Part shown: in pieces, positions 3,351-32,000 of the stretch
How the letters are laid out: the number at the start of each line of letters is the position of its first letter
How positions within the stretch are numbered: the stretch's first letter is position 1
Assembly: GCF_000025665.1 (NCBI RefSeq)
Contig: NC_013926.1
Coordinates: forward strand, 780,001 to 812,000
DNA from: Aciduliprofundum boonei T469
Lineage (GTDB): Archaea > Thermoplasmatota > Thermoplasmata > Thermoplasmatales > Aciduliprofundaceae
DNA: 32,000 nt
Direction: 5' to 3'
Program-made: the position numbers and the translations under genes
Notes under the pieces: model-generated
What the model was told of the DNA's origin: nothing
The model's database searches: none
Seen by the model: the letters and a program-made list of their open reading frames with translations, nothing else

Positions 3351-5354
<2,004 letters not shown>

Positions 5355-5364
5355 GGTGAAATTA

Positions 5365-7731
5365 ATGAAGATTCAAGAGAGGGCAATAGATGAAGAGATG
5401 AAGGATTCTTATATGGACTATGCCATGAGTGTGATAGTTTCTCGTGCTTTACCAGATGTCAGGGACGGACTAAAGCCCGTACATCGCAGAATTCTTTATG
5501 GGATGTATGAGCTCGGATTGTATCATAACAAACCATATAAGAAGAGCGCAAGAATTGTGGGAGAGGTAATGGGTAAGTATCATCCCCATGGTGATCAGGC
5601 CATATACAATACCCTGGCAAGAATGGCCCAGGATTTTTCTATGCGTTATCTCCTGGTGGATGGTCAGGGAAATTTTGGAAGCATCGATGGAGATTCTCCT
5701 GCAGCTATGAGATACACCGAAGCTCGACTTGCAAAAATTGCAGAAGAGATGCTAAAGGATATAGATATGGAAACTGTTGATTTCATGCCCAATTTTGATG
5801 GGACTTTGAAAGAGCCAGTCGTACTTCCTGCAAGAATACCCAATCTTTTAATTAACGGCTCCTCAGGTATTGCTGTTGGAATGGCCACCAACATGCCGCC
5901 CCATAATCTTTCAGAGATAGTTGATGCCTTAATTTATCTAATAGATCATCCAGATGCAGATGTGGATGAGCTTTTGGAATTTGTTAAAGGTCCAGATTTT
6001 CCAACAGGTGGTACGATAATCGGTTATGAGGGGCTTGTGGATGCGTACCGAACTGGAAAGGGAAAGATAAAGGTTCGTGCTAAGTATGAAGTAAAGGAGG
6101 ATAGGATAATAATAAAAGAGATTCCCTACGAGGTGAATAAGAGCACACTTCTAAAGAAGATTGCATCATTGGTTAGAGAGGATAAGCTCCGAGGCATATC
6201 TGATTTGAAGGATGAAAGTGACAGGGAAGGAATAAGGATTGTAATAAAAGTAAAGAGGGATATGAATCCCGAGATAGTGGTTAATCAACTGCTCGAGCAT
6301 ACCGATTTGGAAGTTACTTACGGGATAATAAATTTGGTGCTCGTAGATGGTGTGCCTAGAATTCTAAATTTAAAGGAGCTAATGAAGGAGTATATAAGGC
6401 ACAGGATGGAAGTGCTTGTACGCAAATTGAATTACCAACTCAGAAAGGCAAAGGAGAGGAAGCATATTGTTGAGGGCCTCGTCAAGGCGCTGGGGATGAT
6501 AGATGAGGTTATAGCCACAATAAAAGCATCTAAAGATGTGAAAGAAGCTACGATTAATCTTGTCTCTTTGGGATTTTCGGAAGTTCAAGCTAAGGCAATA
6601 CTGGATATGCGCCTTCAAAAATTAACTTCTATGGAGATAGATGCGCTAATTGAAGAGAACAGAAAATTGGAAGAGGATATCAAGAATATGGAATCCCTTC
6701 TAGCAAGCGAGGAGAAAAGGTATGGTGTTATCAAAGAGGAGCTCTTTGAGATAAAGAATTTGTATGGGGATAAGAGAAGAACGGACATTTATAAGGGCGC
6801 AGTTGAGCGCAGGGACATAGAGGATTTAATTCCAAATGAAGAAGCAGTTATAATTCTAACTGAAAAGGGATATATAAGGAGATTAAAAGTAGATGAGTAC
6901 AGGGCTCAAGGACGTGGCGGTAAGGGAGTTATGATAAATTATGGGGAGGGCGATTTACCGCGGGATATTACAACAGCAAATCTCCACGATTACCTGATGT
7001 TTTTCACGAAGAATGGCAGAGTTTACTGGCTCAAGGCGTATGAGGTTCCTGAGGGAACGAGAAGAAGCAGGGGTAGGGCTATAATAAATATCATACCCAA
7101 ACTTGGGAGCGATGTGATTCGTATGCTCTCTCTCAATGATTTCTCGGGCTACTTGTTTTTCATAACCAGAAATGGAATAGTTAAGAGGACATCTTTGGAA
7201 GAATTTTCAAATCCAAGAAGCACAGGTATAAGGGCAATAATCTTCGATGAGGATGACGAGCTTGTTGATGTGAAAATAACCCATGGGGGAGAGGATATAT
7301 TCCTATTCACAAAGTATGGAAAGGCAATAAGGTTTAGCGAGGATGATGTTCGCGTAATGGGTAGAACTGCTAGGGGTGTTATAGGCATAAAGCTGCAGGA
7401 TGGAGATGAGGTCATATCTTCTGCTGTAGAATCTGAGGGTCCATATGTATTCGCAGTTTTAAGCAGCGGATATGGGAAGAGAACTCCAATAGGTGAGTAT
7501 CGGAGAATAAGAAGAGGGGGAATGGGAGTTAGAAACATAAGCATAAGGAATGCCAATGTTGTAAAAAGTTTGCTGACCACGGAGAATGATGAAGCATTAC
7601 TCCTAACAAAGAATGGGATGAGCATAAGAATAAAGTTGAGAGATGTTTCAGTAATGGGTAGAAATGCAAGAGGAGTTAAACTTATTAAGTTGGATGATGG
7701 AGATGAAGTGGTAAATGTGGCAAAACTCTAA
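5365..7731 (+). CDS. gyrA: DNA gyrase subunit A
   Basis: [49 protein letters not shown] (catalytic Tyr region), and repeated C-terminal beta-pinwheel-type blades. The track starts at GTG 5356. I prefer ATG 5365, 5 nt after GAGGTGA (5353-5359). Confidence 0.95.
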
Positions 7732-10799: not shown

Positions 10800-11660
10800 T
10801 TATAGCACCTCCTCGATGCGCTCTACGATGCTCTCAAATATTTTTGCAGCTCTGCTATCAGGGAATTTTTCAACTACAGGTACACCACTCACATAACTCT
10901 CCAGTATTTCATCAAGCATGGGAATCTCCGCTATTATTTCAGCATCGTAATTTTTCAAGAGCTCATCATGAGAAATCTTGCCAATATCACTACGATTTAT
11001 AACTATCCATGCCTTCAAATTCAGCTTTTTAAGGAGTTTTAGTATCATTTCTAAATCATGTCTCCCAAGAGGTGTTGGCTCTGTGACGGTTATGACTATA
11101 TCAGAGTCCTCTATAGCTGCTGCCACATGATTCCCCGTTCCGGGCATGGTATCAAAGAGGTATATGTCAGCGTCAATATCCATGGCTCTTTGCCTTGCGG
11201 CTAACACTGTTGGATAAGAACGCTCCTCCCCCTCGGCGAGAACGCCAGTAACTAACTCTAAATTATCCTTCACTTTTGTTCTGTATGTGTGGCCTACGAG
11301 GCGATAATCGTCCAGTATGGCCCCCTCCTCTGGACATACTAACTGGCATGTGCGGCATCCGGAGCACAGGGTGGGCATTAGAAATGGATAACCTTCCTTG
11401 AATTGTAAAAGGGCGTTTTCTGCGCAGTTCTCAACGCATAATCCACATTTGGTACATTTACTGTAATCAAATTTTGGTTTGAATAGGTTTACATCTTCCT
11501 CATTCTCGAGCTTTGTTGAAAGGAGAATATAATCGTTGGGGCATTCAACATCTGCATCAACAAACACTACCTTATGCTTTTTAGATAATAGCAACGCCAG
11601 ATTCGTTGCCACTGTGCTCTTTCCTGTTCCACCTTTTCCGCCGGTGACGGTGAGTTTCAT
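10800..11660 (-). CDS. MinD/ParA-superfamily P-loop ATPase with inserted ferredoxin domain (second paralog)
   Basis: MKLTVTGGKGGTGKST, CTKCGLCVENC, CSGCRTCQLVCP. I start at ATG 11660. The 31-codon W/E-rich extension in the track (to 11753) is the alternate frame of the upstream gene's RG tail. Confidence 0.85.
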   Translation of the reverse strand: MKLTVTGGKGGTGKSTVATNLALLLSKKHKVVFVDADVECPNDYILLSTKLENEEDVNLFKPKFDYSKCTKCGLCVENCAENALLQFKEGYPFLMPTLCSGCRTCQLVCPEEGAILDDYRLVGHTYRTKVKDNLELVTGVLAEGEERSYPTVLAARQRAMDIDADIYLFDTMPGTGNHVAAAIEDSDIVITVTEPTPLGRHDLEMILKLLKKLNLKAWIVINRSDIGKISHDELLKNYDAEIIAEIPMLDEILESYVSGVPVVEKFPDSRAAKIFESIVERIEEVL

Positions 11661-11664
11661 TAAA

Positions 11665-12108
11665 TCACCAGCCGCCACGACCTCGTCCCATGTCTCTTCC
11701 CATTCCTCGACCTCTGCCTCGTCCCATACCTCTGCCCATACCTGGACCACCAACAGGTTGAGCAGGTGCGAGGTTACCTTGGAGATACATATTTACCGCA
11801 TCCCCAATCTTTACTGGTGGGGAGGTATACATTTCCACACCTCCCATAGATAGAACTTGAGCAGAGTTTGGACCGATTGCCCCAGCAATCAGAACTTTGC
11901 AACCTTCATTGACCACCGTCTGGCCAGCCTGCATTCCAGCACCACTTGCTGCCGCTGCACCGGGATTTGGTATGACATAAACATTTTTTATTGAATTCCC
12001 TTCTGTTTCAACCACTGTAAATGCAGGACATCTTCCAAACTGCATACTTACCGTATCTTCAAGCCCACCATTTGAATCTGATGCTACACATATTTTCATT
12101 CGGCTCAC
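11665..12108 (-). CDS. NifX/NifB-C-terminal-like (dinitrogenase FeMo-cofactor family, COG1433-like) protein with RG-repeat tail
   Basis: KICVASDSNGGLEDTVSMQFGRCPAFTVVE...IAGAIGPNSAQVLSMGGVEMY matches the PF02579-type pattern. The C-terminus is GGPGMGRGMGRGRGRGMGRDMGRGRGGW. AGGTGA lies upstream of the ATG. Confidence 0.8.
   Translation of the reverse strand: MSRMKICVASDSNGGLEDTVSMQFGRCPAFTVVETEGNSIKNVYVIPNPGAAAASGAGMQAGQTVVNEGCKVLIAGAIGPNSAQVLSMGGVEMYTSPPVKIGDAVNMYLQGNLAPAQPVGGPGMGRGMGRGRGRGMGRDMGRGRGGW
11668..11751 (-). repeat. Low-complexity GMGRG/RGRG coding repeat (28 codons)
   Basis: Quasi-repeats of cctcgtcccat / cctctgcccat are visible on the plus strand. They encode (G-M-G-R-G)n. Confidence 0.8.
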
Positions 12109-17454: not shown

Positions 17455-17819
17455 ATTTGTAAATCTCTTTATATGAAATAAACTTTTTCAAGAAGGGGTA
17501 CCAAGCAGCGCCCTGTATACCAGGGCTAGCTCACAATTTATAAAATTGCTTCATTTTTTATTTCTAAACTTTCTCTTTGAAATTTTCTATGGTTGAAAAT
17601 GTAAGATGCTTCTTTGTCTCATATAACTAATTCAAAAGTTCTTTGGGGGTAAATGAGCATCGTGAGATACGAACACGCTCTGCGTAGCAGGGCAGTGGCA
17701 CCTTTCTTTGTAAGAAAGTGGCTCTAAGAACCTACAGTGGGTTCTTATCAACTCCAGCAACCCAATAATAAGTTTCTTTCCGGATGAAACCGCTTTCTTT
17801 TTTAAAGAAAGGGGTTCAG

Positions 17820-17943
17820 TGGGGCCGACCGGATTTGAACCGGCGACCTCCCGGTATCTGAAAGCCCCCTTTTACGGGTAAAGCCGCTTTTTTAAAGGGG
17901 CTTCTATCAGCCGGGTGCTCCAACCATGCTAAGCTACGGCCCC
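17820..17943 (-). tRNA. tRNA-Ile (anticodon GAU) with a 49-nt intron at canonical position 37/38
   Basis: Hand-folded minus strand. Acceptor GGGGCCG/CGGCCCC, D-arm GCTT-AGCATGGTTG-GAGC, anticodon stem CCCGG/CCGGG, loop CU-GAU-A|intron|A, variable AGGTC, T-arm GCCGG-TTCAAAT-CCGGT, discriminator A. Mature length 75 nt; CCA not encoded. Confidence 0.85.
17856..17904 (-). other. tRNA intron with canonical hBHBh' splice motif
   Basis: Nt 32-35 CUGA pair with intronic UCAG. The 3-nt bulges are U36-A37-G(i1) and A-U(intron)-A38. The flanking intron helix AAGCCCC/GGGGCUU abuts the central 4-bp helix. Confidence 0.75.
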
Positions 17944-28027: not shown

Positions 28028-28042
28028 TTTTTCTTTATTTTT
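28028..28042 (+). terminator. Oligo-T tract (TTTTTCTTTATTTTT) just after the operon's last stop codon
   Basis: Read from sequence. Archaeal termination commonly uses T-runs. No strong hairpin seen. Confidence 0.35.
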
Positions 28043-29333
28043 ATGGTTTTGTTCTTCTGATGGTTCTTGGATATGGTATGGCGTATTTTATATGGGAAAG
28101 TCCTGCAAGCCACCAAACGAGGCGATCAACACCTAATCCAAATCCTGAATGAGGTATGCTTCCATATTTGCGCAAATCCACATACCAGTAATAGTCCTCT
28201 GGATTGAGTCCCTCTTCTTCCATTCTTCTCAAAAGCACATCGAGCTTGTATATCCTTTCCCCACCGCCAATTATCTCTCCATAACCCTCTGGAGCGAGGA
28301 GGTCATGACATAGAACAACTTTTGGGTTATCAGGATCGGGCCTGTGGTAAAATGGCTTAATTTCTATTGGATAATGAGTAACAAATATTGGTTTATCAAA
28401 TTTTTTAGTTATGGCAGTTTCTTCATCGGCACCTAAGTCATCTCCATACTCTATATTTATCCCATTCTCCTGTGCAAATTCTATGAGCTCTTCGTATTTC
28501 ATCCTTATAAAAGGTTTTTCTAAATTCTTTAATATTTCTAAATCTCTATTCAAAAACTTCAGCTCCTTCTCTCTTTCTTCTAGAACTTTTTGGACTATGT
28601 GCATTATGAGCTCTTCTTCATCTCTCATCATATCCTCATTGTGATACCAAGCTACCTCTCCCTCAGCATGCCAGTACTCCGTTAAATGCCTTCTTGTTCT
28701 GCTCTTCTCTGCCCTGAAGCTTGGGGCGATTGTGTAAACTCTTTCCAAAGAGAATATGAAAGTCTCAAGATAGAATTGAGCGCTTTGAGATAGATATGCC
28801 TTTTTTCCGAAATATGGCACTTCAAAGAGAGTTGAGCCCCCTTCAACAGCTCCCGTAACAAAGATAGGTCCTTGAACTTCGTAATATCCATTCTCTCTGA
28901 AGAATTCGTGTATGGCTCCAAATACAGTGTGCCTGATTTTAAGAATAGCATTCATCTCCCTGCTTCTCAGCCACAGATGCCTGTTGTCTAGCAAGAACTC
29001 ATCGCTCTTGTCCTTTGTGATGGGAAATAGGTATGAGGGCCCGATGATATTTATATCTTTAACATCCACTTCATACCCTGTGGGAGCCCTTTCCTCTTTC
29101 CTAATCACTCCATTAATTTCTAATGAAGATTCTACGCCTACTTTGTCCAATTCTTTGAATTTCTCGTTTCCTATTTTTTTCTTCTCTATAACGCATTGGA
29201 TTATGTCAGAAGAATCTCTAAGAACCACGAATATTATCTTGCCCATCCTTCTCTTTCTGTATATCCATCCCCGCAGGGCTACTTCTTTCCCTATGAAATT
29301 GTCTGAGAGTACCTCGGATATGTGATGAAACAT
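28041..29333 (-). CDS. asnS: Asparaginyl-tRNA synthetase (class IIb)
   Basis: N-terminal OB-fold pattern (VALRGWIYRKRRMGKIIFVVLRD). Motif 2 FRAEKSRTRRHLTEYWHAEGEVAW (the EKS-TRRHL-E-W form typical of AsnRS rather than AspRS). Motif 3 GFGLGVDRLVWWLAGL...PYPR. Confidence 0.75.
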   Translation of the reverse strand: MFHHISEVLSDNFIGKEVALRGWIYRKRRMGKIIFVVLRDSSDIIQCVIEKKKIGNEKFKELDKVGVESSLEINGVIRKEERAPTGYEVDVKDINIIGPSYLFPITKDKSDEFLLDNRHLWLRSREMNAILKIRHTVFGAIHEFFRENGYYEVQGPIFVTGAVEGGSTLFEVPYFGKKAYLSQSAQFYLETFIFSLERVYTIAPSFRAEKSRTRRHLTEYWHAEGEVAWYHNEDMMRDEEELIMHIVQKVLEEREKELKFLNRDLEILKNLEKPFIRMKYEELIEFAQENGINIEYGDDLGADEETAITKKFDKPIFVTHYPIEIKPFYHRPDPDNPKVVLCHDLLAPEGYGEIIGGGERIYKLDVLLRRMEEEGLNPEDYYWYVDLRKYGSIPHSGFGLGVDRLVWWLAGLSHIKYAIPYPRTIRRTKP

Positions 29334-29415
29334 AAGGTAGCATGGGAGTTATTTATTTATATCTTATCTCTGGGATTGGCAATAATTATATATCGGTGAA
29401 ATAGAATATACTTTC

Positions 29416-32000
29416 GTGGCAAAAATTCGGGGCTTTTATTCGTACCCTATTTACGATTCCCTATCTCCGGTTATTTTAGATGAGCTTATTTACTATGATT
29501 TCATACATAAGTTTTATGAAATATTTGACGAAGAAACATCGGTAAATTTTGTTACATACTCTTTGAATAAAAAAGATTTGAATAAAATTAAAGAAATTGC
29601 TCCTTATGCTAGATTAATACACGGGGAGAAATACACCGAAGAAATAGGCATGTTAATTAAGGACTTATTCAAAAAGAAAAGTATAGGGATTAAAAATATA
29701 AGAACATACTATTGTAGCAAATGTGACGAGTATTTTAAGGAGAGTCAGGTTAAAATTATTCCCAAGAAATTAAGGGAGAATATTGCAAAGATTAGAGTGG
29801 GGAAAAAAATATATTTTCTTGGAGCTTTTTATGGGGAGGAAGAGCCAATAGGAGTATATCTTGGTAAGAACGATAGTTATGTGATTGCCCAGCTTTATGA
29901 TGAAGAATGGATTGCCCCAGCAAGTTTAGAGCTATTTTTGTTGAAGGAGATAGAGATACCCAAGAGTAAGATAAAAAAAGTAGGGTTTGAAGGAATAAAG
30001 GATTTAAATTTTGAATTGTATGTTATCCAAGGAGATGGGAGAGCGGAGCTTATAAAAAAAGGAGATATAAGGGCTAAGAGTTTAAAAAGAAGAATACCTT
30101 CCTATTCGGTTATATTTTCTAAAGAGAAAGAATTGCCCATAAAGACCTGTCCTATCTGTGGTAATGTCTTGCAGGAAGAGAATGTACCAATCTTAGTAGT
30201 TAAAGGAAAAGGTGGCACATATGATCTCTCATCTCCAGAAGGCTCATACAAACTTCCTGTTCTCTATTGTCCAAATTGCGGGCATATAGAATATGGCACA
30301 ATAATCAAAGAATGTCCAGTGTGTGGAAATATAATGGAAAGAAGATTCTCTCTTAAGCCAGAGTTATCCGCTCTGGGCGCTTATATCCATAGTTTTGATG
30401 CACCTCCCTCTCTAATGTTCCTTCACCAGAAGAGATTTATTTTGAAGTATTTTATGGAAAATATTTTGAAGGTTTATGGTAAATATCTTTTTAAAAATAC
30501 GAGATATCTTTCTCATAAAGTACCTGAAAGTATAGATGAAGTTAAGAGAGCTGCACTTTTGATAAAGAAAAGAGGCACTATAAATAAATCCGATATAAAA
30601 AAGATCAGAAAGTTGAGAAATGTAGTTGATAATATTGTTAGATATGTAGAAATTTATGGAACCACTGATGATTACAAAGAAGAGGATGAATGGCTATTGT
30701 GGAAGAATAACGAAGTTAAAAAAAGAATTAGAGAATTAGTAGAGAATGGTAAGATATCTTATGCTTTCCATGTTCTCTATGGGCATATCATTGGAGACAT
30801 TTCGCATTTTTATATACCAATAAAAAGGAAAACTCCATTAGTTCTTGAACCAGTTAGAGATGCCATCTTGATGCTTTATCCGTTTATGCCTGCTTTTGTG
30901 GAAGAGAATTTAGGAAGGATAAATGTTGAGAAATTTTCATTAAGCACTACTGAAGCTGAGGAGATAAGCACTATGGAAATCATAAGGGATTTCGTAAAGG
31001 TTGTCAGAAAGTATAGGGAGAAGAAAGGTATTCCGAGAAAAGAGCCACTAAAAAAAGTCGTTTTTGTAACTTCCTATGCTGATGAAGTAAATTCCCTAAA
31101 GAGTTCTATTTTGAATTTAGAGAATGTGCTTATATTTCAAGTTGTGGAGGATTGGGATGAGATGGAAATAGAGATAGAACCCAATATGGAAGAGATAAGT
31201 GCATCTTATCGTGCCTGGGCGCCTAAAATAGGTTTCTTGCTTCGTAGGAAAAATGTTAGGGAAGTTCTAGATGCCATGGAGAAGGGGGGATACACTCTTG
31301 GAATTGAAGGCTTCATAATTAAAATAACTCCAAAGATGATAAATTATATAAAGAAGGTTCCAGAGGGCTATGACCATATTGAATTTGAGTATGGAGATAT
31401 ATATATTCAAAACGAAAGAGATGCTACTACAAAGAGAATTAGGTTGGTTCGGGAGGTAATAAGGAGAATAAATATTATGAGAAAGGATATTGATATGGAT
31501 TTCGATGATTTAATTGATGTAAGTATTTCTGGAGATAGTGAAGCTATAAAGATGATAAGGGGCTACGATGATGAGATTAGAGAAAAATGTTTGGCTAGAA
31601 ACATTGAATTTAGCTATACGGAATACGGATACATTGTAGAGTGGCCTATAATGGGATACAGAATTACAATAGGTATAAATCCACTGTTTAAGCGTTGGGT
31701 TATAAAGGCGTTTAAGAGTATACCCGGTATAGATGATTACAGAGCAGAGCTTTTGTTTAAAATGGGGTATGGGAGTATATATGAATTGATGGAAGCTGAG
31801 CCAGAGCAGATAGCTGAGGCCACAGGTATGCCTCTGAAGCTTGTAAATGAGCTTATTGATTACCTCTACTCTACGGCTTTCAAACCTAAAAAAGAAAAAA
31901 ATAAGGAGTATTGCCCGTTCTGTGGTACCGAGCTCACACCTGATGATGATTTTTGTCCAAGATGCGGGGCACCTATAAGGGTTAAGATGGAAGAAAGAAA
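29416..32000 (+). CDS. Class Ia (IleRS-type) aminoacyl-tRNA synthetase-like protein lacking HIGH and KMSKS, with added HhH region and C-terminal zinc ribbon; 3' end beyond window (absent from ORF track)
   Basis: Hand translation is open from 29341 to the window end. Candidate starts are GTG 29416 or GTG 29395; there is no in-frame ATG before ~29649. Retained blocks are LFKKKSIGIKNIRTYYCSKCDEYF (CP1 entry), CPICG/CPNCG/CPVCG knuckles, KIRKLRNVVDNIVRY, DEWLLWKNNEVKKRIRELVENGKISYAFHVLYGHIIGDISHFYI and LYPFMPAFVEENL (anticodon-binding domain). Also retained is an IleRS-type C-terminal region (KRIRLVREVIRRINIMRKDIDMDFDDLIDV). Confidence 0.7.
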   Translation, partial: MAKIRGFYSYPIYDSLSPVILDELIYYDFIHKFYEIFDEETSVNFVTYSLNKKDLNKIKEIAPYARLIHGEKYTEEIGMLIKDLFKKKSIGIKNIRTYYCSKCDEYFKESQVKIIPKKLRENIAKIRVGKKIYFLGAFYGEEEPIGVYLGKNDSYVIAQLYDEEWIAPASLELFLLKEIEIPKSKIKKVGFEGIKDLNFELYVIQGDGRAELIKKGDIRAKSLKRRIPSYSVIFSKEKELPIKTCPICGNVLQEENVPILVVKGKGGTYDLSSPEGSYKLPVLYCPNCGHIEYGTIIKECPVCGNIMERRFSLKPELSALGAYIHSFDAPPSLMFLHQKRFILKYFMENILKVYGKYLFKNTRYLSHKVPESIDEVKRAALLIKKRGTINKSDIKKIRKLRNVVDNIVRYVEIYGTTDDYKEEDEWLLWKNNEVKKRIRELVENGKISYAFHVLYGHIIGDISHFYIPIKRKTPLVLEPVRDAILMLYPFMPAFVEENLGRINVEKFSLSTTEAEEISTMEIIRDFVKVVRKYREKKGIPRKEPLKKVVFVTSYADEVNSLKSSILNLENVLIFQVVEDWDEMEIEIEPNMEEISASYRAWAPKIGFLLRRKNVREVLDAMEKGGYTLGIEGFIIKITPKMINYIKKVPEGYDHIEFEYGDIYIQNERDATTKRIRLVREVIRRINIMRKDIDMDFDDLIDVSISGDSEAIKMIRGYDDEIREKCLARNIEFSYTEYGYIVEWPIMGYRITIGINPLFKRWVIKAFKSIPGIDDYRAELLFKMGYGSIYELMEAEPEQIAEATGMPLKLVNELIDYLYSTAFKPKKEKNKEYCPFCGTELTPDDDFCPRCGAPIRVKMEER

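Follow-up and report, generated by a model that had tools for sequence, protein, structure and literature searches.

We describe a gene of Aciduliprofundum boonei T469, Aboo_0847, that descends from an archaeal-type isoleucyl-tRNA synthetase (IleRS) and is predicted to have lost the aminoacylation and editing functions of that enzyme while keeping the parts by which IleRS recognizes tRNA-Ile. The gene begins near the end of the stretch of 32,000 nucleotides that was analyzed (contig NC_013926.1, positions 780,001 to 812,000; hereafter the window) and runs past it. Judging from sequence comparisons and structural models, we consider it moderately likely that the product is a non-catalytic adaptor or sensor that binds tRNA-Ile, and thus a paralog of IleRS rather than a working synthetase. 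The first-pass annotation of the window, made by eye, had recognized in this frame the CP1 entry, four CxxC knuckles, a helix, the anticodon-binding domain and an IleRS-type C-terminal region, in that order, together with eroded HIGH and KMSKS signatures and a CP1 much shorter than normal. From these it had proposed a dead, tRNA-binding-competent IleRS paralog. Our alignments and the Pfam matches to Anticodon_1 and DUF5915 bear out the order of the parts, and the proposal itself gains support from the loss of motifs, the retained anticodon-contact residues and the pattern of selection. The same annotation had allowed that intact HIGH and KMSKS motifs might have been misaligned by eye, that the gene might be a decaying pseudogene, and that the C-terminus was missing from view; profile alignment shows neither motif intact, seven orthologs are intact, and the missing part has been recovered from the full-length protein.

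A TAA at 29383 precedes the open frame, whose first start codon is a GTG at 29416, from which 861 codons extend to the window end at 32000. The full protein (P0001) has 1007 amino acids, so that the last 146 residues, including the DUF835 domain in which it ends, lie outside the window. A 100% match shares a cluster with Aboo_0847 (WP_008082614), by which the protein was identified. In databases it appears as “DUF835 domain-containing protein” or as “Anticodon-binding domain family”, under COG0060, and the ortholog in strain MAR08-339 carries the name “valyl-tRNA synthetase”. Among 5.8 billion protein clusters searched, there were 11 full-length relatives with 1002-1007 amino acids and 45-100% identity. 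One of them, P0008, had been called at 969 amino acids owing to a mis-called start; an in-frame GTG 108 nt upstream (L004:9893-10000) gives a protein of 1005 amino acids and restores the conserved N-terminus VEKARELYSYPIYD. A third homolog search, with the profile widened by distant reduced members, returned the same 11 proteins and nothing further.

The profile of the 11 orthologs (alignment A1) was compared in hhalign with one built from ten canonical IleRS (A2), of which five scored 828-963 bits on the NCBIfam ileS model TIGR00392. The two profiles matched over residues 63-757 with a probability of 100 and E=9e-44. In an AlphaFold2 model built on A1, residues 10-460 were predicted with a per-residue confidence (pLDDT) of 80-92, and strands and helices in the N-terminal half follow the order of a Rossmann fold broken up by insertions. 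A Foldseek search of the PDB ranked IleRS at the top (Priestia megaterium IleRS2, E=5e-30, then the yeast and S. aureus enzymes), followed by ValRS (8e-20) and LeuRS (about 1e-12). In addition, an exhaustive profile search of 1.84 billion representatives provided the intermediates that make the alignment reliable. These comprise IleRS of full size that have both the same C-terminal tail and intact motifs (P0040, P0047, P0052, P0062, P0065 and P0067), full-size proteins with eroded motifs (P0037, P0042, P0045, P0046, P0053, P0056-59 and others) and reduced forms of 921-1091 amino acids (P0033-P0036). Among the models, the best match of the full-size intermediates was TIGR00392. Based on the hhalign match, the Foldseek ranking and these TIGR00392 scores, we conclude that Aboo_0847 descends from archaeal-type IleRS.

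None of the catalytic elements of that ancestor is recognizable. The HIGH region reads FYSYP-IYDSLSPVILDELIYYDF and aligns to the canonical IleRS stretch that starts F(F/L); in the alignment with intermediates its loop is three residues shorter, contains no histidine and has SPVI where archaeal IleRS have H-[IM]-G-T. At the KMSKS position (YLSHKVPESID, from nt 30505), MAFFT and hhalign agree on a gap of about 21 residues after HKVPESID, and therefore the KMSKS loop has been deleted, not substituted. The motif EAxDQTRGWF of the adenylate and amino-acid pocket has been deleted, as has the DxxHGLP region, and neither of the editing motifs, WTTTPWT and GTGxVHxAPGHG, is present. Compared with canonical IleRS, the catalytic body has become shorter in each of its segments: from the N-terminus to knuckle 1 (100 against 182 amino acids), from knuckle 1 to 2, which is the CP1 or editing region (145 against 220), from knuckle 2 to 3 (40 against 72), from knuckle 3 to 4 (15 against 43) and from knuckle 4 to the anticodon-binding domain (124 against 183). 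In total, about 280 residues are gone, and a body of about 700 has shrunk to about 424. Consistently, Pfam gave no tRNA-synt_1 match at E<=1 in Aboo_0847, so that the first 420 residues fit no such model, and the protein scored 16.9 bits on TIGR00392 against a cut-off of 621.4. Apart from the cysteines, just Y133, G289 and G304 are invariant within the N-terminal 375 amino acids of the reduced family. With its aminoacylation and editing signatures all lost, Aboo_0847 is predicted to be catalytically dead.

In contrast to this erosion, which the tRNA-binding half has escaped, Pfam recognized in the protein both Anticodon_1 (E=1.4e-14) and, with E=4.4e-11, DUF5915, which type-2 (archaeal/eukaryotic-type) IleRS carry as their C-terminal domain. 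The four CxxC knuckles match those of archaeal IleRS one-to-one and do not vary among the 14 sequences of alignment A4; their eight cysteines remain invariant even at 24-30% identity. In the hhalign comparison, knuckle 2 (C245/248) had fallen on the third canonical knuckle, with HCWRC unaligned, a placement that we rejected because MAFFT alignment through the intermediates keeps the four knuckles collinear. In structures of yeast IleRS with tRNA-Ile, A35/U36 are read by Arg739 and the wobble base N34 by Arg999, which lies in the motif RIQKLRKK; Arg838 lends support to the fold, Asn660 contacts the loop backbone, and alanine in place of these arginines abolishes tRNA-Ile charging (PMC11685878). 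The yeast numbering was confirmed on chain 8wnd_A and transferred by way of the alignment, according to which Asn660, Arg739, Arg838, Arg999 and Leu1004 correspond to N406, R471, R534, R689 and M694 of Aboo_0847. Throughout the Aciduliprofundum clade the three arginines are kept, save for one Lys at position 471, and the four distant reduced members have Arg or Lys at each of the three positions. From these residues, Aboo_0847 is predicted to be competent for tRNA-Ile binding.

The synthetase-derived body is followed by a tail of a helix-hairpin-helix (HhH) domain, a C4 zinc ribbon and DUF835. The HHH_5 model matched the HhH domain with E=5e-5 in Aboo_0847 and 3.5e-9 in the relative P0033; its likeness to the N-terminal domain of RadA is weak (2bke, E=0.021). 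The succession of an HhH domain and a RecA/KaiC-type core would mirror the layout of RadA. DUF835 (PF05763) scored 63.9 bits in the full-length protein against a gathering cut-off of 33.1 (E=1.8e-17). An AlphaFold2 model of the last 150 residues, made on a 22-member alignment, reached a pLDDT of 93, and Foldseek matched it to KaiC (E=9e-7) and to the archaellum protein FlaH (E=3e-6) with TM scores of 0.6-0.69. A sequence-profile search of the PDB with the DUF835 alignment gave a marginal match to FlaH only (E=0.05). The Walker A position after strand 1 is occupied by GELGDM, with no GKT/S, so there is no P-loop. DUF835 is thus modelled as a KaiC/FlaH-like fold without Walker A, that is, as an inactive KaiC-like domain. 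DUF835 has been classed as an inactivated KaiC (iKaiC) output domain of archaeal response regulators (PMC5847659).

A tail with HHH_5 and DUF835 also occurs in entries named isoleucine--tRNA ligase, of 1320-1500 amino acids, from Thermoplasmata and Methanomassiliicoccales. Among them, P0040 passes the ileS cut-off (812 bits against 621), and both catalytic motifs are kept in P0040, P0047, P0052, P0062, P0065 and P0067, with KMSKS usually in the form PMSKS. In the related proteins P0226-P0324, the IleRS tails consist of an HhH domain, sometimes zinc ribbons or TPR, and then DUF835. We found no published description of an HhH-DUF835 extension on Thermoplasmata or Methanomassiliicoccales IleRS. 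A second kind of IleRS-like paralog with the same tail was seen in Thermoplasmatota (P0037, P0042, P0045, P0046, P0053 and P0056-P0059; 1170-1480 amino acids). In these full-size proteins, CP1 has the size of an editing domain, HIGH and KMSKS are eroded, and the ileS score lies below the cut-off (315-421 bits in the two that were scored, P0045 and P0037); asnS is not adjacent at their loci (L022-L026).

We also analyzed selection on the family. All seven orthologous genes are intact and have no internal stop. Ratios of nonsynonymous to synonymous substitution (dN/dS), which are Nei-Gojobori estimates from the closer ortholog pairs, were 0.06-0.14 overall. By region, they were 0.10-0.14 in the dead catalytic body (residues 1-375), 0.08-0.16 in the anticodon-binding region, 0.03-0.12 in the C-terminal tRNA-binding domains and 0.03-0.07 in DUF835, where one more divergent pair gave 0.14. 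The C-terminal tRNA-binding domains and the tail modules are therefore the most constrained parts of Aboo_0847. Because dN/dS is about 0.1 and the orthologs are intact, we conclude that purifying selection acts on the gene and that it is no decaying pseudogene. The family pattern is kept in orthologs at 45-87% identity and in relatives at 24-30% identity, and therefore it has not arisen by chance. A genome scan (one genome per GTDB species) found 19 related loci. It returned the reduced form at 44-81% identity in Aciduliprofundum and DHVE2 metagenome-assembled genomes (MAGs), more distant reduced forms in Aciduliprofundum sp. JdFR-45 and several Thermoplasmata MAGs, and full-size eroded forms in other Thermoplasmatota; A. 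boonei T469 itself was not returned, though its sequence fits the search pattern MRKDIDMDF, probably owing to masking of this region in the genome collection. In two loci from one metagenome sample, L008:11314-11598 and L006:5296-5580, the segment for the HhH domain and zinc ribbon (codons 766-860, window 31711-31995) is identical in nucleotides, whereas dS is 0.24-0.88 in all other segments. This suggests that co-resident strains have recombined recently, or else that the assembly is chimeric.

Table 1. Features of the Aboo_0847 gene and of its divergent neighbor, in window coordinates
Feature	Position	Strand	Basis
Predicted IleRS-derived pseudo-synthetase gene (Aboo_0847 family)	29416..32000, past window end	+	Translation; GTG start; full-length homologs
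Degenerate first Rossmann half, residues 1-99	29416..29712	+	AlphaFold2 beta-alpha-beta-alpha-beta; alignment; segment lengths
HIGH-equivalent loop PIYDSLSPVI	29446-29475	+	Alignment
Zn knuckle 1, C100-x-x-C103, equivalent to CP1-entry PWCxRC of IleRS	29713..29724	+	Alignments; invariant in A1 and A4
Remnant of CP1/editing domain, shrunken, residues 104-244	29725..30147	+	Motif columns; segment length
Zn knuckle 2, C245-x-x-C248, equivalent to CP1-exit HCWRC	30148..30159	+	MAFFT alignment with intermediates
Zn knuckles 3 (C285/C288) and 4 (C300/C303), counterparts of archaeal IleRS WxCxxCG and LKCxxCGxxMxR	30268..30324	+	Alignments; invariant in A4
Second Rossmann half remnant (beta4-alpha-beta5)	30403..30540	+	AlphaFold2 strands 334-337 and 362-367
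Deleted-KMSKS-loop site YLSHKVPESID	30505-30537	+	Gap of about 21 residues
Stem-contact helix KIRKLRNVVDNIVRY (N406) and class Ia anticodon-binding domain	30541..31095	+	Anticodon_1; residue mapping
R471, equivalent to yeast Arg739	30826-30828	+	Residue mapping
R534, equivalent to yeast Arg838, in anticodon-binding part	31015-31017	+	Residue mapping
Eukaryote/archaeal-type IleRS C-terminal tRNA-binding domains (DUF5915)	31096..31710	+	Pfam; dN/dS; mapping
R689 in motif REVIRRINIMRKD, equivalent to yeast Arg999	31480-31482	+	Residue mapping
Helix-hairpin-helix domain, residues 766-825, RadA N-terminal-like	31711..31890	+	HHH_5
C4 zinc ribbon, C833, C836, C847, C850	31909..31977	+	Zn_ribbon_3/Zn_Ribbon_1, E about 2e-7; cysteines invariant
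asnS (asparaginyl-tRNA synthetase), divergent neighbor, also in most relatives	28041..29333	-	Open reading frame; tRNA_anti-codon and tRNA-synt_2; tblastn synteny
Divergent intergenic region asnS/Aboo_0847, 82 bp	29334..29415	.	Alignment of five orthologous intergenic regions

Next to Aboo_0847 lies asnS, in divergent orientation, as the first-pass annotation had noted with an estimated gap of about 80 bp; the actual gap is 82 bp. Alignment of five orthologous intergenic regions revealed two conserved AT-rich boxes. One, TTTATTTATA at 29352-29361, is 19-28 nt away from the ATG of asnS; the other, ATAATTATATAT at about 29382-29393, is 23-35 nt away from the GTG at 29416. The boxes TTTATTTATA and ATAnnTATATAT are nearly invariant among orthologs with 45-70% protein identity. 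They are probably archaeal TATA boxes of back-to-back promoters that would give leaderless or short-leader transcripts. The gene order in the Aciduliprofundum clade is oppBCDF, asnS (-), the Aboo_0847 family gene and AcnX (-). In the family as a whole, asnS was the divergent neighbor in 13 of the 27 loci examined (these loci overlap in part), and the divergent pairing, with a gap of 78-82 bp, is also found in JdFR-45 and two Thermoplasmata MAGs, where the protein is 28% identical. This conserved head-to-head arrangement suggests co-regulation with, or action on, the translation apparatus.

The remaining part of the window was also surveyed. A tRNA-Ile(GAU) gene with a 49-nt intron beside the anticodon loop lies at 17819-17943 (-); it was found by Rfam (54.5 bits) and by intron-aware ARAGORN, and was missed by default ARAGORN. 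It is 11.5 kb from the IleRS-like gene, and we found no evidence of a functional link between the two. The genes gyrB and gyrA, upstream in the window (region at 3408-7731 (+) and 10800-12108 (-)), appear to be ordinary context, as does a GC peak at 11-12 kb (0.47 against about 0.38) at a MinD/ParA-type 4Fe-4S ATPase and a dinitrogenase FeMo-cofactor-binding-domain protein.

We propose the following history and function for Aboo_0847. An ancestral Thermoplasmata IleRS would already have carried the tail of HhH domain, zinc ribbon and DUF835. After duplication of this tailed enzyme, one copy would have shed all elements of the aminoacylation and editing sites, leaving a zinc-stapled remnant of the Rossmann fold. 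The present protein would bind tRNA-Ile by the anticodon arm and not charge it, while the inactive KaiC-like domain, possibly together with the HhH domain and zinc ribbon, would oligomerize or dock onto partner proteins. In this way, Aboo_0847 would act as a tRNA-Ile-specific adaptor or sensor and not as an enzyme.

However, several observations weigh against this proposal. The residue equivalent to yeast Gln996 is an Asn (N686) in Aboo_0847, and the equivalent of Arg999 is a Lys in two of the four distant members; because of these substitutions, the tRNA specificity may have drifted. The AlphaFold2 model has low confidence at residues 580-760. With regard to the neighborhood, no KaiC-type ATPase gene adjoins Aboo_0847, the asnS pairing is absent from L013 and L014 (with UbiA and PcrB upstream) and from L021 (with YjeF upstream), and where it is present it could reflect inherited gene order only. 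The proposal also assumes that the protein co-exists with a functional IleRS in A. boonei. Such a housekeeping ileS is expected because IleRS is essential and catalysis by Aboo_0847 should be impossible. In a search with the canonical IleRS P0075, however, no match named Aciduliprofundum was among the best 120 of 7754, the clusters of the ten nearest P0075 matches contained no Aciduliprofundum or DHVE2 ileS, and the contigs of four candidate housekeeping ileS genes came from unrelated assemblies.

A more specific version of the proposal can be drawn from eukaryotes. The HisRS-like domain of GCN2 is a tRNA-binding module that stems from a synthetase, is catalytically dead and is joined to a signalling domain; it belongs to class II, binds uncharged tRNA broadly and is fused to an active eIF2-alpha kinase. 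The logic proposed for Aboo_0847 is the same in that a dead tRNA-binding module is joined to a further domain. In contrast, the module in Aboo_0847 is a class Ia IleRS in which anticodon-specific residues are kept, and its fusion partner is an inactive KaiC-like domain. We offer only tentatively, as a rather doubtful extension, the idea that Aboo_0847 is an archaeal counterpart of GCN2 in which the dead IleRS reads the state or abundance of tRNA-Ile by its remaining anticodon-specific contacts and signals, via the inactive KaiC domain, into the KaiC-type ATPase network that has been proposed for archaea. If this speculation is true, then it would provide amino-acid-starvation sensing in organisms without RelA/SpoT and GCN2. 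As a corollary, the ancestral fusion of IleRS and a KaiC-like domain would, in Aciduliprofundum, have been split by duplication into a catalytic and a sensing copy.

We also considered the possibility that the protein is a scaffold of an archaeal multi-synthetase or translation complex, in which the tRNA-binding residues would be relics and the KaiC-like domain would bridge AsnRS, IleRS or other factors. KaiC- and RadA-type domains oligomerize, and such a fold is modelled in the tail of Aboo_0847. Its conserved neighbor, asnS, is itself an aminoacyl-tRNA synthetase (aaRS) gene, and the C-terminal add-on of eukaryotic IleRS serves complex assembly (PMC11685878). However, the tRNA-binding C-terminal domain is the most constrained part (dN/dS 0.03-0.05) and the key arginines are conserved, which is unexpected of relics. 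We regard the scaffold as rather unlikely; it overlaps with an adaptor or sensor rather than excluding it.

It is also conceivable, though unlikely, that the protein regulates asnS locally, or translation genes more broadly, with the HhH domain and zinc ribbon binding the DNA of the shared promoter while the tRNA-binding half makes the regulation responsive to tRNA status. Nucleic-acid binding is frequent for HhH and zinc-ribbon modules, and the divergent layout, the gap of 78-82 bp and the conserved AT-rich boxes are kept down to 28% identity. However, the same tail is found on catalytically intact IleRS that are not beside asnS, and therefore the tail did not evolve for asnS control. In addition, the pairing is missing at L013, L014 and L021, as described above, and no sequence-specific DNA-binding domain was found in Aboo_0847.

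Quite improbable, in our judgment, is an aminoacyl-tRNA-dependent transferase that binds charged Ile-tRNA-Ile and passes the isoleucine on, a reaction in which the ATP motifs are not needed. There are aaRS-derived enzymes that use aminoacyl-tRNA without HIGH and KMSKS, SbzA is derived from IleRS (PMC9437257), cyclodipeptide synthases offer a parallel, and Aboo_0847 retains the residues for tRNA-Ile recognition as well as a folded remnant of the Rossmann domain. However, the pocket motif EAxDQTRGWF and the DxxHGLP region have been deleted and not remodelled, the N-terminal 375 amino acids of the reduced family hold no conserved polar constellation suitable for an active site, and no biosynthetic genes lie nearby. 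Finally, we rejected as having next to no probability both a working housekeeping IleRS with highly divergent motifs (for which COG0060, the name “valyl-tRNA synthetase” in one genome and the lack of a second ileS among the matches listed might speak), given that the KMSKS loop, the HIGH histidines, the pocket, the editing site and about 280 residues are gone and the ileS score is 16.9 bits against 621, and a decaying pseudogene, given the intact open reading frames in all orthologs, a dN/dS of about 0.1 and a family that reaches 24% identity.

The adaptor or sensor that we favor can be compared with several known systems. The closest are the tailed IleRS of Thermoplasmata and Methanomassiliicoccales, which share with Aboo_0847 homology over the whole length, the knuckles, the anticodon-binding domain, DUF5915 with RRIQxMRK, the HhH domain, the zinc ribbon and DUF835. 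They differ from it in keeping H(I/M)GT, (K/P)MSKS, the pocket and the full editing domain, and Aboo_0847 is about 300-400 amino acids shorter. For IleRS, a 2022 review of synthetase paralogs gives IleRS2 and SbzA only, and the nearest archaeal analogue in it is LeuRS-I of Sulfolobaceae (PMC9437257). LeuRS-I, which binds tRNA, cannot aminoacylate and co-exists with the housekeeping enzyme (Weitzel et al. 2020, reviewed in PMC9437257), is likewise an archaeal class Ia paralog with a disrupted CP1 editing domain. However, it still makes leucyl-adenylate, with the HIGH/KMSKS chemistry intact, is derived from LeuRS, and has an acidic C-terminus and no tail of HhH and KaiC-like domains. SbzA and the mupirocin-resistant IleRS2 (MupA/MupB) are derived from IleRS, and IleRS2 shares the type-2 C-terminal domain, but these are active bacterial enzymes with intact catalytic cores (PMC9437257). 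The DUF835 or iKaiC response regulators, which occur in Thermoplasmata and Methanomicrobia (Galperin et al. 2018, PMC5847659), share with Aboo_0847 PF05763 and the KaiC/FlaH-like fold without a P-loop; in them DUF835 follows REC or PAS, whereas in Aboo_0847 it follows a synthetase-derived tRNA-binding body. In the full-text literature we found no published description of an IleRS paralog of the Aboo_0847 type; Makarova et al. 2017 (mBio, on KaiC-like hubs), which possibly mentions a fusion of IleRS and iKaiC, lies outside that scope.

Synthetase-derived pseudo-enzymes are rare, and GCN2, HisZ and LeuRS-I each tied tRNA or amino-acid status to regulation. Aboo_0847 would be a new type of synthetase paralog, since the IleRS paralogs reviewed so far are active enzymes. 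The COG0060 assignment and the label “valyl-tRNA synthetase” are wrong for this family, and they can distort synthetase counts and marker-gene analyses. The protein may represent a natural minimal module for tRNA-Ile recognition, with a zinc-stapled core, a KaiC-like tail and the arginines that read the anticodon. It points to a link, so far unexplored, between the archaeal translation apparatus and KaiC-type proteins, and the presence of the same tail on working Thermoplasmata IleRS suggests that this link is older and wider than Aboo_0847 itself.

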